20,116 nt of DNA from a virus, in the UHGV virus genome UHGV-1705587. The stretch is one strand, 5' to 3'. Shown in pieces: positions 6,157 to 17,361 of this stretch. How positions within the stretch are numbered: the first letter of the stretch is position 1; each line of letters opens with the position of its first letter. The position numbers and the translations under genes were made by a program. The notes under the pieces were generated by a model. The model was not told the DNA's origin. It searched no databases and worked only from the letters and a program-made list of their open reading frames with translations.

Positions 6157-7098
6157 ATGATTACTTTTGATCAGGCAACCGTTGATAGCTCTGGTGCCTT
6201 TCTCATCGGGGAGCTGGAGCGACTCGACCAGACGCTGAACCTGCCGCTGGTGGGTTACACCTGGACCCGCGATATTCAGCTGCGTGAAGACGTTTCTATC
6301 GCAGATGACATTTCCAGCTGGACTAACACCAGTTTTGGCGCTGCTGGTACTGGCGCAAATCCGAATGGTAAAAACTGGGTAGGCAAAGACTCCACCGCTA
6401 TTGCTGGCGTGAACGTGGATATCAGCAAAGACGGCAATCCACTGAACCTCTGGGGTATGGAACTGGGCTGGACCGTTGTAGAGCTGGCAGCAGCTCAGCA
6501 GGTAGGTCGCCCGATTGATACCCAGAAGTACGACGGGATGCAGCTCAAATGGCAGATGGATAACGACGAGCAGGTTTACATTGGCGATGATGCGCTCGGC
6601 CTGAAAGGGCTGGCAAACCTTGTCGGTGTGACGCTGAACAATGCGCCGAAGACCTGGGCGAACTCAACCAACGACGAGATCCTCGATAGCGTGAACAGCA
6701 TTCTGTCTAATGCCTGGGCAGCATCCGGTTATTCCATCGTGCCTTCTGATCTGCGCATTCCGCCAGAGCAGTATTCACTGCTGGCGAGCCGTAAGGTTTC
6801 CGAAGCGGGTAACCAGTCACTGCTGACCTATCTGGCTGTGAACACTATCGCTTTCCACCAGAACGGCGTTCCGCTTGAAATCAAAGCGGTCAAATGGCTG
6901 AAAGGGCGTGGGGTTGGCGGTAAAGACCGTATGATCGCCTACACCAACGACAAGAAATACGTGCGCTATCCGCTGGTGCCGTTGCAGAGCGTTCCTGTCC
7001 AGTATCGCGGTCTGTACCAGATTGCGACCTACTACGGCAAGCTCGGTGCGGTTGAGCCAGTGTACAAAGAAACCCTGTCCTACGTGGACGGTATCTGA
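6157..7098 (+). CDS. Major capsid protein
   Basis: 313-aa ORF with AGGAA RBS, located after the scaffold-like gene and followed by tandem stops (TGATAA) and a GC stem with GAAA tetraloop (7111-7122). Position and size fit a major capsid protein of the DUF2184-type head module; assignment is by synteny and recollection. Confidence 0.6.
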   Translation: MITFDQATVDSSGAFLIGELERLDQTLNLPLVGYTWTRDIQLREDVSIADDISSWTNTSFGAAGTGANPNGKNWVGKDSTAIAGVNVDISKDGNPLNLWGMELGWTVVELAAAQQVGRPIDTQKYDGMQLKWQMDNDEQVYIGDDALGLKGLANLVGVTLNNAPKTWANSTNDEILDSVNSILSNAWAASGYSIVPSDLRIPPEQYSLLASRKVSEAGNQSLLTYLAVNTIAFHQNGVPLEIKAVKWLKGRGVGGKDRMIAYTNDKKYVRYPLVPLQSVPVQYRGLYQIATYYGKLGAVEPVYKETLSYVDGI

Positions 7099-7139
7099 TA
7101 ACCAGAACGACCCCGAAAGGGGCCAGAAGGAAACTGAAA

Positions 7140-7550
7140 ATGGCGAAAGAAAAGCTGGTTACCATCCATGTTCACACCCCGTTTACGCTGACGCTCGGCG
7201 ATCAGTCAAAAAGGGAGTTTGGCCGGGGACGGCATAACGTACCGGAAGAGGTCGCGTTGCACTGGTTCACCCAGGCGCACTCTGAGCTTTCCGAAAGCGT
7301 GATTAGCGACACCGATGATCTGCAACCCATTATCGACAGCCTGCAAGCGCAGATTGCCGACAAAGATAAGCAGATTGCCGACAAAGATAAGCAGATTGTC
7401 GATAAAGATCAGCTGATTGCCGATCTGAAAGAAGCGCTGCTCAAGCTGCAAGAGCAGAACGACAGCCTGCAAGCGCAGATTGCTGCCGCCCAGACTGGCG
7501 GTAATGGGGCGAAAGATGCCAAAGAATCAAAGCCTGCCAACAGTAAGTGA
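7140..7550 (+). CDS. Coiled-coil protein with tandem heptad repeats (possible capsid or neck accessory protein)
   Basis: 136-aa ORF with AGGAA RBS. Central region encodes [28 protein letters not shown] from four 21-nt tandem repeats, flanked by two copies of DSLQAQIA. Lysine-rich C-terminus. Confidence 0.55.
7350..7433 (+). repeat. Tandem 21-bp repeat, about 4 copies with the last two degenerate, flanked by a 23-bp direct repeat at 7335-7357 and 7461-7483
   Basis: cagattgccgacaaagataag occurs at 7350-7370 and 7371-7391, then cagattgtcgataaagatcag (7392-7412) and ctgattgccgatctgaaagaa (7413-7433). gacagcctgcaagcgcagattgc occurs identically at 7335-7357 and 7461-7483. Confidence 0.85.
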
Positions 7551-11006: not shown

Positions 11007-11432
11007 ATGGAATTCGAAATTAAAGGCGTGAAATATCGCACCGCAAAGCTCAGCGTTTTCGAACAGCTGAAGGTGTCCCGCAAGCTGTTGCCGGTGCTGG
11101 CCGGGATGGTTTCTGACTTCCGGAGCGTTCAGGAGAAAATCAGCAGCAAAGACACCGAAGGCGCGATGGCTACCATCCTGCCAAAAATTGCGAATGCTGT
11201 GTCCGATCTGAGCGATGGCGACGTGGACGCTATCCTGTTCCCCTGCCTTTCCGTCGTTTCACGCGAGCACATGAAAGCCTGGGTGCCGGTCTGCCAGCAT
11301 GGCGAAATGGCGTTTGACGATATCGACCTGCTGACCATGCTGCAACTGGTGGCGCGGGTGGTCGCCGACTCGCTGGGAAATTTTTTGCAAGGACTCCCTA
11401 CCAGCGAGACGCCCACCCCGCCAGCGGAATAA
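11007..11432 (+). CDS. Tail assembly chaperone (P2 gpE-like), zero-frame product
   Basis: 141-aa ORF immediately upstream of the tape measure gene. Contains the slippery run AAATTTTTTG at 11378-11387 near its 3' end, and is followed by a 177-nt gap lacking an ATG-initiated ORF but open in the -1 frame. Confidence 0.65.
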   Translation: MEFEIKGVKYRTAKLSVFEQLKVSRKLLPVLAGMVSDFRSVQEKISSKDTEGAMATILPKIANAVSDLSDGDVDAILFPCLSVVSREHMKAWVPVCQHGEMAFDDIDLLTMLQLVARVVADSLGNFLQGLPTSETPTPPAE

Positions 11433-11620
11433 CCTTCAATAGCCTGCCGGGCGGTGAAGATTTTATTCTTCGTCCGGCGCTTGCCTTCCATATTGACCAG
11501 AAAGACCTTAACAGCGGTGCGGTAGACCTCTGCCGCATCGCGCTTCTCAATGACTACCTCGACATGCGCGAGGATAACGACGCCCGGGTAGATAAATGGA
11601 GAGCGGACAATGAGCGGTAA
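11387..11620 (+). CDS. Predicted -1 frameshift extension of the tail assembly chaperone (P2 E+E'-like); fused product spans 11007-11620
   Basis: The -1 frame is open with no stop from the slippery site T_TTT_TTG (11381-11387) to TAA at 11618-11620, filling the gap and overlapping the tape measure start by 11 nt. Predicted extension: ARTPYQRDAHPASGITFNSLPGGEDFILRPALAFHIDQKDLNSGAVDLCRIALLNDYLDMREDNDARVDKWRADNER. Fused product about 204 aa. Confidence 0.55.
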   Translation, partial: ARTPYQRDAHPASGITFNSLPGGEDFILRPALAFHIDQKDLNSGAVDLCRIALLNDYLDMREDNDARVDKWRADNER

Positions 11621-14788: not shown

Positions 14789-15853
14789 ATGTCTCTTAAC
14801 TGGATGCGCCATTTTGAGTTGCAGCTGTTGGACCAGAACGGGCAGGGTATTTCCCTGTCTGATTTTAAGGTCACGTTCCAGATCGAGTGGGCAGATACAC
14901 GCTGGCCGCGCGTGGCAAACGTGAAAATTTACAACCTTTCGACCGATACCACGAACAAGATACTGGGGCAGGAGTTTGCAAAAATTCGCATCATTGCCGG
15001 GTATGACGGTATTGCGCCGGATGTTGATGCGAGCCAGGTTGGTGTCGCCCGGGAGATTTCACCAGACCAGGTAGGGCAGGTGAACGGTCAGAACTACGGC
15101 CTGATATTTGACGGTGATATTCGCTTCACCGTCACCGGGAAGGACAACATCACCGATTCCTGGGTGCTGATTCAGGCCATCAGTAACCACGAAGCGTTCC
15201 TCTACGCGACTACCATCACCACGCTTGCCGCTGGCTATACCGTTGCGGATCTGCACCGGGCGACGATGCAGGATTTCAACGCGTTCGGCGTGACACAGGG
15301 CATTACCGGCGATTTTCCTGATACCGTGTTTCCTCGTGGCCGCGCGATTTACTCATCCAGCCGCAACGTGATGGATAATATTGCTGCGCAGTGCAAAGCG
15401 ACATGGCAACTGGTGGATGGTCAGGTCCAGATGGTGCCGGAGGATAAATATATTCACGAAGCCATTGTGTTGAATGCCAATACTGGCCTGATCGGTATGC
15501 CGCAACAAACGATGGGCGGCGGAGTAAACGTGCGGTGCCTGATAAACCCAAACATCCGTATTAATGGTCTTATCCAGCTCGATCAGGCTTCGGTGTACCG
15601 CGCCACGCTCGGCAAGAGCGAAATAGCACAGTCGCCCGGGCGTATCACCGAAACAGAAGAGAACGGCAACCGTGTGCTGACCGGCACGACGTCACAGGCT
15701 GCCAGCATTGCGACGGATGGCGTTTATATCGTCAAAGCTATCGACTATACTGGCGACACCAGAGGTCAGGCGTGGTACATGGATTTGATGTGTTTTGCGC
15801 GTGGTGCTCGTGAAATGGTTAGTCAGGACACGCTTAAAAAATGGCAGGTATAA
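14789..15853 (+). CDS. Baseplate hub protein (P2 gpD / late control D-like)
   Basis: 354-aa ORF with AGGAG RBS, last gene of the FI-FII-E-T-U-D-like block. Size and position match a hub protein. Confidence 0.55.
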   Translation: MSLNWMRHFELQLLDQNGQGISLSDFKVTFQIEWADTRWPRVANVKIYNLSTDTTNKILGQEFAKIRIIAGYDGIAPDVDASQVGVAREISPDQVGQVNGQNYGLIFDGDIRFTVTGKDNITDSWVLIQAISNHEAFLYATTITTLAAGYTVADLHRATMQDFNAFGVTQGITGDFPDTVFPRGRAIYSSSRNVMDNIAAQCKATWQLVDGQVQMVPEDKYIHEAIVLNANTGLIGMPQQTMGGGVNVRCLINPNIRINGLIQLDQASVYRATLGKSEIAQSPGRITETEENGNRVLTGTTSQAASIATDGVYIVKAIDYTGDTRGQAWYMDLMCFARGAREMVSQDTLKKWQV

Positions 15854-15854
15854 G

Positions 15855-16205
15855 ATGGGTAAGGCCAAACTTCTAATTTGTGGTGTTCTTTTATCAGTTG
15901 TCGGCACGTCAGAGGCCTTAGCTGATACTCAGTGCGGGCCGTATCGCCTCACTGCGGGCAAAGAAGGACTAATGCTTATTAACGGGGTAAAACCTGAAAC
16001 GCAAAAAATGTCTTTTCTCAAGTCTAAAGATGACTACCAAAACATGAAAGCAGAATGGATGGTTGCAACCGACCAACCCGGCCGCTGGGTTGGGCTTGAG
16101 TACATCAAGCGCAACGGCAAAGCCATTCTCAACGCACAGTGGTTGCAAGCCAGCATGGATTCGCCGCGTCAGTATGCAACATACGACTGCGTAAAAATTA
16201 AATAA
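15855..16205 (+). CDS. Moron gene A: small Sec-secreted (periplasmic) protein of unknown function
   Basis: 116-aa ORF starting 1 nt after the hub stop (the longest ORF from 15795 would overlap the hub gene). N-terminus MGKAKLLICGVLLSVVGTSEALA-DTQ looks like a signal peptide with an AxA cleavage site. Mature protein about 93 aa with two Cys (one near each end). About 47% GC by hand count versus 55-60% in flanking phage genes. Confidence 0.55.
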   Translation: MGKAKLLICGVLLSVVGTSEALADTQCGPYRLTAGKEGLMLINGVKPETQKMSFLKSKDDYQNMKAEWMVATDQPGRWVGLEYIKRNGKAILNAQWLQASMDSPRQYATYDCVKIK

Positions 16206-16216
16206 GCGACTCATCT

Positions 16217-16447
16217 ATGAAGATAACTATTTTTTCTGATGATCATGTCCAGTCAGTTGATGCCCCTGATGGAACTTTAAGCTGGACCATGCTGAACTCT
16301 GATGGCTCCAAATCAGAGGCTAAAGTAGAAATGTATGAATATCGAGAATTATCGGTTCATAAATTCTGTTATATCGCTCGCTTTAGGGACGTTGAAATTA
16401 GTGAGATGCGACATGCCGCTGTTAAACATGGCTATGACGTAAATTAG
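16217..16447 (+). CDS. Moron gene B: small cytoplasmic protein of unknown function
   Basis: 76-aa ORF 11 nt after gene A, no signal peptide, weak RBS. About 39% GC by hand count, the most AT-rich coding segment in the window. Followed by a 176-bp AT-rich spacer and an intrinsic terminator. Confidence 0.45.
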   Translation: MKITIFSDDHVQSVDAPDGTLSWTMLNSDGSKSEAKVEMYEYRELSVHKFCYIARFRDVEISEMRHAAVKHGYDVN

Positions 16448-16585
16448 TGCAATATTAGGATCGCAGAGAGCAGATTTTTTGATTATCATTTATTTGAGCA
16501 TTTGACTGGGTGTTATACACCAAGCGCCACCCGAAAGGGGAAAGGGAGACGATAAGCCGTTTCAGGTTAAATGCTCACATCTCAT

Positions 16586-16612
16586 AAGGTCGCCATTGTG
16601 CGGCCTTTTTTT
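16586..16612 (+). terminator. Rho-independent terminator downstream of the moron cassette
   Basis: Stem GGUCGC (16588-16593) pairs with GCGGCC (16600-16605), one G-U wobble, 6-nt loop, optionally extended by two A-U pairs, followed by T7 at 16606-16612. Located 11 nt upstream of the spike gene ATG. Confidence 0.5.
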
Positions 16613-16623
16613 ATGGGGTTTTT

Positions 16624-17361
16624 ATGCCAATTCCAACTCAATCACAGATCGGCGGAGAGCAGCAGACCGCGCAGGCCATAGCCGATTCGGTGTCTACCCA
16701 GATGCGCGTAGCGATGCCCGGCATCATTCAGTCGTTCGATCCTGATACTGTTACCTGCACGGTAGAGGTGGCGCTACGCGGTATTGTTGGCGACGGCTCC
16801 ACCGAATTAAAACCGCTGGTGGATGTGCCGGTTATCTTCCCGCGCGGTGGCGGTTGCACACTGACCTTTCCGGTTAAAGAAGGCGACGAGTGCCTGCTGA
16901 TCTTTGCCGACCGTTGCATCGATTTCTGGTGGCAGAGCGGCGGCGTTCAGGAGACCGTCGACCCGCGTCAGCATGATTTATCGGATGCGTTCGCCATCGT
17001 TGGCCCGCAGTCGCAAGCACAAAAAATCGGTGGAATCAGTACCGGAGCAACGCAGCTGCGCAGCGACGATGGGAGCACGTATTTTGAGCTCAACCCCACC
17101 ACGCAGAAAATTAAAATTGTAGCGCCAGGCGGCCTGGATGTTATCGCGCCTGAATCGACATTCTCAGCGAAGGTAACGATTACCGGTCTACTCACCTGGA
17201 TGGGGGGGATGGTCGGCAGTCTTGCCAGCGGAACAGCGGCGAAAATTACTGGTGCGATTGAATTCTTTGGGACGCTTAAATCTAACGGTAAATCTATTGA
17301 TGACACGCACACCCACAAAGGCGTTCAGACGGGTAGCGGCAATTCTGGTGGGGTAAACTGA
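16624..17361 (+). CDS. Baseplate central spike / baseplate assembly protein V-like
   Basis: 245-aa ORF, first gene of a V-W-J-I-H-like block. Gly-rich C-terminus with an HTH (His-x-His) motif (nt 17308-17316), reminiscent of the metal-binding apex of gpV-type spikes. Confidence 0.55.
   Translation: MPIPTQSQIGGEQQTAQAIADSVSTQMRVAMPGIIQSFDPDTVTCTVEVALRGIVGDGSTELKPLVDVPVIFPRGGGCTLTFPVKEGDECLLIFADRCIDFWWQSGGVQETVDPRQHDLSDAFAIVGPQSQAQKIGGISTGATQLRSDDGSTYFELNPTTQKIKIVAPGGLDVIAPESTFSAKVTITGLLTWMGGMVGSLASGTAAKITGAIEFFGTLKSNGKSIDDTHTHKGVQTGSGNSGGVN

Follow-up and report, generated by a model that had tools for sequence, protein, structure and literature searches.

What occupies the junction between the baseplate hub and baseplate spike genes of the viral genome UHGV-1705587, and which parts of it are foreign to the phage? 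The stretch analyzed (the window) comprises 20,116 nucleotides (nt). At positions 15,855–16,447 it contains two small genes, called here A and B, followed by a spacer with a structured RNA and an intrinsic terminator. A sequence-only reading of the window had taken the two genes for one horizontally acquired cassette, a moron, ending with its own terminator. Comparison with relatives suggests a junction built of three layers. The first would be an ancestral intrinsic terminator ahead of the spike ribosome-binding site; the second, an old accessory gene A, fixed in the lineage directly after the hub; the third, a recombination-driven cargo slot extending from A to the terminator, which in the window would hold gene B together with a separate RNA module sharing the terminator. 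This model, with A as an entry-blocking protein and B as a protein of phage conflict, is favored with moderate confidence. The same judgement, made jointly for the explanation as a whole, covers the reading of the window as the late operon of structural genes in a temperate, SEN34-like myovirus (Brunovirus) whose regulation is lambdoid. The features of the junction are as follows.

14789–15853, plus strand: baseplate hub gene, left boundary of the junction (Pfam PF22759 E217_GP41, E 4e-6, slightly short of the curated cut-off; syntenic with SEN34_19 'baseplate hub')
15723–15751, plus strand: weak promoter-like site TTTATA-17-TATACT at the 3' end of the hub gene (sigma-70-like match; a hint only)
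15855–16205, plus strand: gene A, precursor of a predicted exported protein, 116 amino acids (aa), PHROG 3443; lineage-conserved accessory gene
15855–15923, plus strand: putative signal peptide of A, MGKAKLLICGVLLSVVGTSEALA, read from the sequence; predicted cleavage before Asp24
16217–16447, plus strand: gene B, acidic orphan of 76 aa, predicted cytoplasmic; putative mobile cargo (moron)
16448–16494, plus strand: AT-rich segment by composition (47 nt, 30% GC) with a -10-like hexamer TATCAT at 16484–16489
16495–16577, plus strand: structured RNA element (fold, covariance model, compensatory changes)
16586–16615, plus strand: intrinsic terminator (AAGGUCGCC-AUUGUG-CGGCCUU and a U-run), directly 5' of the spike ribosome-binding site
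16624–17361, plus strand: baseplate spike gene, right boundary of the junction (Pfam PF18352, E 1.4e-41; syntenic with SEN34_22 'baseplate spike')

Composition of the junction

The ATG of gene A lies one base past the hub stop codon, and gene B starts 11 nt past A with no Shine-Dalgarno sequence. The spacer takes up positions 16448–16623; at its end the terminator hairpin (16586–16607), followed by a T-run, stands 16 nt ahead of the spike ATG (16624). Two small low-GC genes, an AT-rich spacer and a terminator are thus found between hub and spike, just as had been described, and they form the lowest-GC stretch of the window. The recomputed GC content is 0.473 for A and 0.394 for B, in agreement with the earlier figures of about 47% and 39%, versus flank values of 0.534 (hub) and 0.556 (spike). 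The compositional difference is upheld, and only the 55–60% given for the flanks was slightly high. The contrast is sharper at third codon positions (GC3 of 0.50 and 0.35 for A and B versus 0.63 and 0.60 for hub and spike). The 593-nt stretch of A and B (GC 0.444) falls within the lowest 1.6% of same-sized windows taken along the whole sequence; all such windows at or below 0.444 overlap the junction, the lowest value elsewhere being 0.457.

The flanks of the junction (hub and spike) match 53 complete E. coli genomes at 91–98% identity, and the middle of the query is covered in none of them. The gene A segment alone has matches in 40 complete E. coli genomes (73–98%), and the segment of gene B with the spacer has none in this set.

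Conservation of gene A

With the hub protein as a query and one genome per species, 61 loci from ~25 Enterobacterales genera were collected, of which 56 have an informative junction. An A-family gene is located directly 3' of the hub in 46 of the 56, alone in 8 cases and with further genes in 38. Seven junctions carry other genes without a clear A, and three are empty. The gene is still syntenic and recognizable where hub identity is only ~54%. Its retention after the hub across so many genera marks A, as judged from sequence comparison, as a conserved gene of the lineage and not a recent cargo. The low GC content of A is seen in every relative and is therefore a trait of the family, giving no sign of a recent arrival. 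Of the proposed horizontal acquisition, then, only the part concerning B stands (see below). Gene A is widespread in prophages of E. coli, Salmonella, Klebsiella, Yersinia and Serratia, and its ratio of nonsynonymous to synonymous substitution rates (dN/dS) of 0.13–0.18 is that of a real gene.

The mature A protein has 93 aa and an isoelectric point (pI) of 9.2, and is preceded by a typical Sec signal (MGKAKLLICGVLLSVVGTSEALA|DT). Throughout the family the N-terminus is hydrophobic and variable in sequence, with an AxA-type site at its end in nearly all homologues. Cys27 and Cys112 are retained family-wide and are invariant in an alignment of 45 sequences; the motifs ING, SQK.xFL, G..YG.E and LN are retained as well. 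The predicted structure is an eight-stranded β-barrel. Most probably, the product of A is a small periplasmic β-barrel exported by the Sec pathway and stabilized by a disulfide bond, as the model and the cysteine pair suggest. The earlier description of A as secreted and of B, which has no hydrophobic segment, as cytoplasmic agrees with these predictions.

The sequence-only reading recognized neither protein. Gene A does belong to a named group (PHROG 3443), and one homologue is called 'STY1065/STY2022 family phage-derived protein' in RefSeq, though neither name is functional. No match to A was obtained in Pfam, NCBIfam or PADLOC (PADLOC-DB 2.0, E up to 1), a fold search of BFVD returned nothing at E up to 0.001, and a literature search for STY1065/STY2022 found nothing relevant. 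An MliC/PliC-like inhibitor of lysozyme or transglycosylase, considered because of the SLT domain of the tape-measure protein, found no profile (PF09864) or fold support.

At four loci the position of A is occupied by proteins of 240–296 aa with a lipobox (L014, 6099–6989; L025, 6075–6941; L030, 6089–6811; L077, 2201–2926), none of which has a Pfam domain. In L014 and L025 the A domain is C-terminal and follows ~200 aa of unrecognized sequence. In L030 and L077 unrelated lipoproteins replace A; L077 keeps the last ~17 codons of A, and L030 a short A-like trace. Since A is either fused to lipoproteins or replaced by unrelated ones at these loci, the gene directly 3' of the hub would in every case be one for an envelope protein.

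The cargo slot and the junction terminator

The hub-spike junction varies in length from 52 bp to 2.6 kb, and the distance from A to the spike from ~10 nt to more than 2 kb. In L015 and L066 gene A is followed directly by the terminator and spike; adjacency of hub and spike is confined to the most distant relatives (L062, L064 and L071). The cargo that relatives carry from A to the terminator sorts into more than 40 clusters of unrelated genes. These include PD-Lambda-1, PDC-S57, PDC-S42, PDC-S02, Mrr/type IV restriction (mREase_IV) and the Phd/Doc and YafO toxin-antitoxin systems, as well as genes with T5orf172/MUG113, tRNA_anti-like, DUF4236 and P22 antirepressor domains. PADLOC-DB 2.0 matches among these slot neighbors are PD-Lambda-1, PDC-S57, PDC-S42 and mREase_IV. 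The PD-Lambda-1 matches (408–409 aa, E 5e-83, with a T5orf172/MUG113 nuclease domain) lie in L024 (2830–4059), L040 (6498–7724) and L061 (3407–4636). PD-lambda-1 is now called SNIPE; this membrane nuclease cleaves the DNA of a phage as it is injected (PMC13190303). The junction is thus, as the sequence-only reading had supposed, a genuine cargo site, and validated defense genes are among its cargo.

In nearly every locus, whatever the cargo, a GC-rich hairpin with a T-run stands directly 5' of the spike ribosome-binding site. Its stem varies while the pairing is kept (CCCGCC/GGCGGG, AGCCGC/GCGGCT, GGTCGCC/GGCGGCC); the window-type terminator recurs in L003, L074 and L076 with a conserved stem and a variable loop. 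It is also present in the three empty junctions (L062, L064 and L071). Because it accompanies any cargo and none, the terminator is an old feature of the junction that lies outside the insert, and it can no longer be counted as a part of the cassette. It is missing in L044, L047, L048, L050, L052 and L053. Its position inside an essential late operon implies obligatory read-through.

In comparisons of close relatives, the proportion of synonymous differences (pS) in A is 0.18–0.34 in the 3' half and ~0.9 in the 5' half. In the Salmonella loci (L077) just the A remnant mentioned above is left behind a different gene. Both observations speak for recombination joints within A. Homologous anchors for the exchange of cargo would then be provided on the left by the 3' half of A, which is conserved, and on the right by the terminator with the start of the spike gene. 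No baseplate defense hotspot was found described in a literature search.

Gene B

Gene B encodes a protein of 76 aa with a pI of 5.4. Its dN/dS of 0.12–0.16 indicates a real gene under purifying selection. It is rare: nine homologue clusters were found among 5.8 billion proteins and about five small full-length relatives among 1.84 billion representatives, and neither 50,697 phage records nor the 56 species-level junctions nor complete E. coli genomes yielded a homologue. The predicted model (predicted local distance difference test score, pLDDT, of 78) has five strands and a C-terminal helix and matched no solved fold. The protein has no PADLOC-DB 2.0 match (E up to 1) and matched no anti-defense family.

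The places where B occurs are more informative about its history. In the Brunovirus slot it is found in E. coli-type, Enterobacter, Salmonella, Cedecea-type and compost-metagenome loci; in Salmonella (L077–L079) it stands behind an unrelated lipoprotein. Two further occurrences lack A: one in a lambdoid prophage of Yersinia, where B lies between Q (PF03589) and the lysis genes (L075, 3001–3228), and one in another phage, between Rz of the lysis genes and terS (L081, 3001–3228). In all three contexts a terminator is located 3' of B, and in the window, L075 and L081 it is of the AGGTCGCC...GCGGCC type with a T-run. As far as can be read from these distributions, B is the actual horizontally mobile moron, moving between moron sites of different prophages; its rarity, low GC content, three sites and terminators agree with the acquired origin that had been proposed. 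A moron is defined as extra DNA of deviant GC content with its own promoter and terminator (Juhala/Hendrix, summarized in PMC3594210). Gene B shows three of these four properties, being extra DNA between otherwise adjacent genes, deviating in GC content and being followed by a terminator, though the last is present at cargo-free junctions of relatives too.

The other genes found in this slot, mostly defense and toxin-antitoxin genes, favor a role of B in phage-phage or phage-host conflict. Judged by its slot neighbors, B is probably a small phage-conflict protein acting in defense or exclusion or in counter-defense. A type I or III toxin-antitoxin pair of B and the RNA described below was considered and rejected. 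The B protein is neither hydrophobic nor a ToxN-like nuclease, and the RNA is non-repetitive, lies 3' of B and is present without B elsewhere.

A structured RNA in the spacer

The RNA at 16495–16577 (~85–95 nt in its different copies) consists of an outer stem, P1, around three hairpins, and its fold has a z-score of -3.1. The invariant core is formed by AAGCGCCA, CCC-GRAA-GGG and RAAAG, followed by a 6-bp hairpin with the loop AUAAGC. The covariance model finds the window copy at 16489–16584 on the plus strand with 100 bits, and G-U pairs fix the strand as plus. In an alignment of 13 distinct sequences pairing holds for 97% of the cells, and changes on both sides are seen at 14 of 25 pairs, which none of 500 shuffles reached; slid controls are only 26–47% paired. 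A MAFFT alignment made independently of the model gives 93% pairing and 7 pairs with double changes. Rfam release 15 has no match: the best plus-strand score, that of Phe_leader, is 22 bits where the gathering score is 55 (E 0.67). The copies in Salmonella phage PT1 and Serratia phage MQ-4 likewise have no match in Rfam.

Other copies of the RNA (L082 at ~1482–1579, L083 at 1471–1565, L084–L093 and L095–L098) occupy at least five gene contexts. They are found after the integrase gene in PT1 and MQ-4; directly 3' of a Q antiterminator gene (PF06323) and ahead of the holin in IMG/VR contigs; after lysis genes between DUF2560 and DUF551 genes; and between two glycosyltransferase-like genes with the window-type terminator following. 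This type of terminator follows the RNA in L089–L093. Among all Brunovirus junctions the covariance model finds the RNA only where B is present.

The -10-like hexamer always lies 6 nt 5' of the outer-stem GAGC; outside the window it reads TATAAT, TATAGT or CATAAT. Where the RNA is Q-adjacent, these 6 nt are taken up into the outer stem, which implies a transcription start further upstream, and as a promoter of the RNA the hexamer is ambiguous. The Q-adjacent copies (L084, L086, L088 and L083) contain UGCUCUU(U/A) in the 3' strand of the outer stem, which we take to resemble boxA, a motif of antitermination; in the window copy the sequence is UGCUCACA. Riboswitch-like competition between the RNA and the terminator was rejected: the minimum-free-energy fold keeps both structures, so an alternative pairing is not evident. 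The RNA may be a trans-acting small RNA (sRNA), an RNA derived from the 3' untranslated region of B or a cis-acting element tied to the following terminator.

Promoters and expression

Between 15500 and 16900 the sole sigma-70-like match (9/12) is the site at 15723–15751 inside the hub gene, which is no better than those in shuffled sequences, and no promoter-like site is present from the hub stop to B. The ACT codon of hub Thr321, whose last base is the last base of the -10 hexamer TATACT (15746–15751), is kept in 52 of 60 divergent hubs. Its codon entropy is 0.71 versus 1.86 for the next Thr, and the codon of Tyr320 varies between TAT and TAC. The retention of ACT may hint at an embedded promoter or at some other constraint at the nucleotide level.

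In lambda, RNA polymerase modified by Q ignores intrinsic terminators. Since this lineage has a Q-type antiterminator, read-through of the junction terminator would be expected in lytic growth. The modified polymerase would then pass the terminator, and A, B and the RNA would be expressed at least late. In a lysogen the terminator would stop stray or moron-driven transcription.

What A and B may do

An action of A on the cell envelope is suggested by analogy. HK97 gp15, which is encoded by a moron in the tail operon, is an envelope-located superinfection-exclusion protein (PMC3594210). With envelope-located exclusion proteins known from tail regions, the best inference is that A blocks the entry of incoming phage from the periplasm. 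Its predicted periplasmic export, its position in the tail module and its lipoprotein variants are circumstantial signs of such a role.

Several observations weigh against the proposed protective roles of A and B. Pantoea stewartii ATCC 8199 (NZ_CP046558.1) has five related prophages or tail modules (L012, L031, L043, L052 and L053), and both the variant of gene A and the content of the slot differ in each. Coexistence of five A variants in one genome argues against broad exclusion by A; type-specific exclusion is still compatible with it. In L044, L047, L048, L050, L052 and L053 hub, A and spike are translationally coupled and the terminator is missing, so that in this sub-lineage A looks, from its arrangement, like an ordinary late-operon gene. 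Library profile and fold searches matched neither A nor B to a known exclusion or defense family, and B is too small for a recognizable catalytic domain. Finally, as no convincing promoter of A or B is seen, their expression may be limited to the late lytic phase, which fits poorly with protection of the lysogen.

Tight synteny of A with the hub over deep divergence, together with translational coupling on both sides in the sub-lineage just mentioned, could also mean that A is a structural or assembly part of the baseplate, kept beside the hub because the tail tip needs it. This is quite unlikely. The cleavable Sec-type signal predicted for A and its conserved cysteine pair imply an oxidizing periplasm, some variants are lipoprotein fusions, and complete baseplate modules exist without A (L062, L064 and L071) or with unrelated lipoproteins instead. 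A diverged avidin/streptavidin-family protein, binding biotin or a similar ligand in the periplasm, was suggested by a short avidin-like motif in one hairpin of A, with weak hidden Markov model and hhalign signals (single-domain E of 0.4–3 for the PDB profile). We hold this to be extremely unlikely and have dropped it: none of 45 family members matches Pfam Avidin (PF01382) at E up to 10, and W68, W78 and W96 of the window copy, which align with the biotin-pocket Trp residues of avidin/streptavidin, become Met/Leu, Tyr/Phe and Leu/Ala/Val in distant members. The sequence-only reading itself, with A and B as one acquired module expressed in the lysogen and working as a pair, e.g. in exclusion or conversion, could explain why both genes are low in GC, separated by 11 nt only and followed by a terminator, and the pairing does recur in E. 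coli-type, Enterobacter, Cedecea-type and compost-metagenome loci. It is nevertheless very unlikely. Gene A occurs without B in all 46 of the junctions that carry it, A is lacking beside B in L075 and L081, the gene ahead of B in L077–L079 is that of a non-A lipoprotein, the A variants 5' of B differ widely (61–77% identity), and the low GC content of A is shared by every relative. These separate distributions led us to reject the pair. A toxin-antitoxin or paired defense operon of A and B was discarded as well, the genes not being co-inherited and neither matching PADLOC.

For B a serious alternative, though one held with rather less than even probability, is a late-lytic accessory that serves the phage, e.g. 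an inhibitor of counter-defense type expressed together with the structural genes, and gives no protection to the lysogen. It is the location of B that makes this alternative serious, all three contexts (Q-lysis, lysis-terS and hub-spike) lying within Q-dependent late units. There is also no evident promoter upstream of B, which in the Brunovirus slot has only 11 nt and no Shine-Dalgarno sequence before it, and in its small size and acidity B is like many inhibitor proteins of phages. However, genes of the same slot in relatives are mostly host-protective defense or toxin-antitoxin genes, and B has no match among anti-defense families. The whole region from B to the spike might, on the other hand, be inert AT-rich filler with a terminator, the RNA fold having arisen by chance; a comparison limited to the four closest copies reveals no compensatory changes, and no Rfam family matches. 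This has become very improbable with the addition of copies from unrelated phages, with which the double-changed pairs and the pairing have the values given above, far from those of the slid controls. The core is, moreover, invariant in PT1, MQ-4, IMG/VR and metagenome contigs, in five gene contexts.

Comparison with known systems

A close parallel to A is HK97 gp15. Both are small accessory genes of a lambdoid-regulated tail operon with deviant GC content, an envelope product (predicted in the case of A) and a terminator after them. The HK97 protein is located in the inner membrane and YebO-like, and its gene has its own promoter and shown prophage expression, whereas A is a predicted soluble periplasmic β-barrel with no detectable promoter. 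Gene A is fixed in its lineage and gp15 is sporadic; the two have no relation in sequence or fold, and exclusion by A is proposed by analogy. T4 Spackle, T5 Llp and Ltp of the Streptococcus phage TP-J34 are small exported phage-encoded proteins that block, outside the cytoplasm, at the incoming tail tip or the receptor. Some of them are soluble and others lipid-anchored, a variation also seen in the A family. No similarity of A to any of the three was found in sequence or structure, and Spackle is helical. The eight-stranded barrel of avidin and streptavidin differs from that predicted for A in the pocket residues, which are not conserved in A, in the absence of a Pfam Avidin match and in the disulfide pattern.

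Hotspots of P2 prophages and P4 satellites are fixed sites where unrelated defense genes alternate. The slot described here resembles them in that conserved phage genes bound alternating defense and toxin-antitoxin cargo, SNIPE homologues being present at three loci. It differs in lying inside the baseplate part of a SEN34-like late operon, with a gene for a putative exported protein on the left and a terminator on the right. The RNA copies in L086 and L088, which lie 3' of Q and before the holin, take the position of the short late-leader RNAs of lambdoid pR'-tR' units, i.e. lambda 6S RNA, LPR2 and StxS of Stx phages (PMC7547250, bioRxiv 10.1101/2024.10.31.621285), and the window copy has a strong terminator with a U-tail. 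In contrast to these RNAs, to which it has no known sequence relation, the window RNA lies in the baseplate region, 3' of B.

Morons and defense hotspots of temperate phages are well known as a kind of feature. Undescribed, as far as the libraries searched show, are the location of this one, its anchor gene, B and the RNA. A bolder reading, which we consider doubtful, would make the junction an undescribed hotspot in which A founds a family of entry-blocking barrels and also serves as the recombination anchor, B is a minimal anti-phage or anti-defense hopper and the RNA represents a new regulatory class. In that case the RNA could be a trans-acting sRNA or a cis element letting the polymerase pass the terminator.

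Prophage cargo hotspots are a productive source of new bacterial immune genes, and this one is easily located by the hub and A on one side and the terminator and spike on the other. With the validated SNIPE/PD-lambda-1 and dozens of unannotated Enterobacterales families, the slot provides a list of candidates that includes B. If A does block entry, it would bear on host range in phage therapy against E. coli, Salmonella, Klebsiella, Yersinia and Serratia. The RNA, supported by covariation, present in several phage types and absent from Rfam, joins the conserved non-coding RNAs of phages, of which very few are known.

The remainder of the window

Structural genes, all on one strand, are tightly packed along the window, and besides the hub-spike junction the only gaps of more than 20 nt are at 7098–7140 and 11432–11610. 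The genes follow in the order of terminase small and large subunits, portal, capsid, sheath, tube, tape-measure protein with an SLT domain, Dit-like protein, Pam3-gp18-type plug, hub, spike, sheath initiator, baseplate J and wedge protein. Closest among deposited phages are Citrobacter phage Omnitron, Salmonella phage SEN34 (a Brunovirus) and temperate myoviruses of Klebsiella, Escherichia and Yersinia. The lambdoid regulation of SEN34 comprises a repressor, a CII-like regulator, O/P replication genes, NinB/NinG and a Q-like antiterminator, and its genes run on a single strand from Q through the lysis genes and then from terS to the tail fibre. The 177-nt gap at 11432–11610, the sole other large gap of the operon, separates a tail-chaperone-like gene from the tape-measure gene and may correspond to the frameshift extension of the chaperone.

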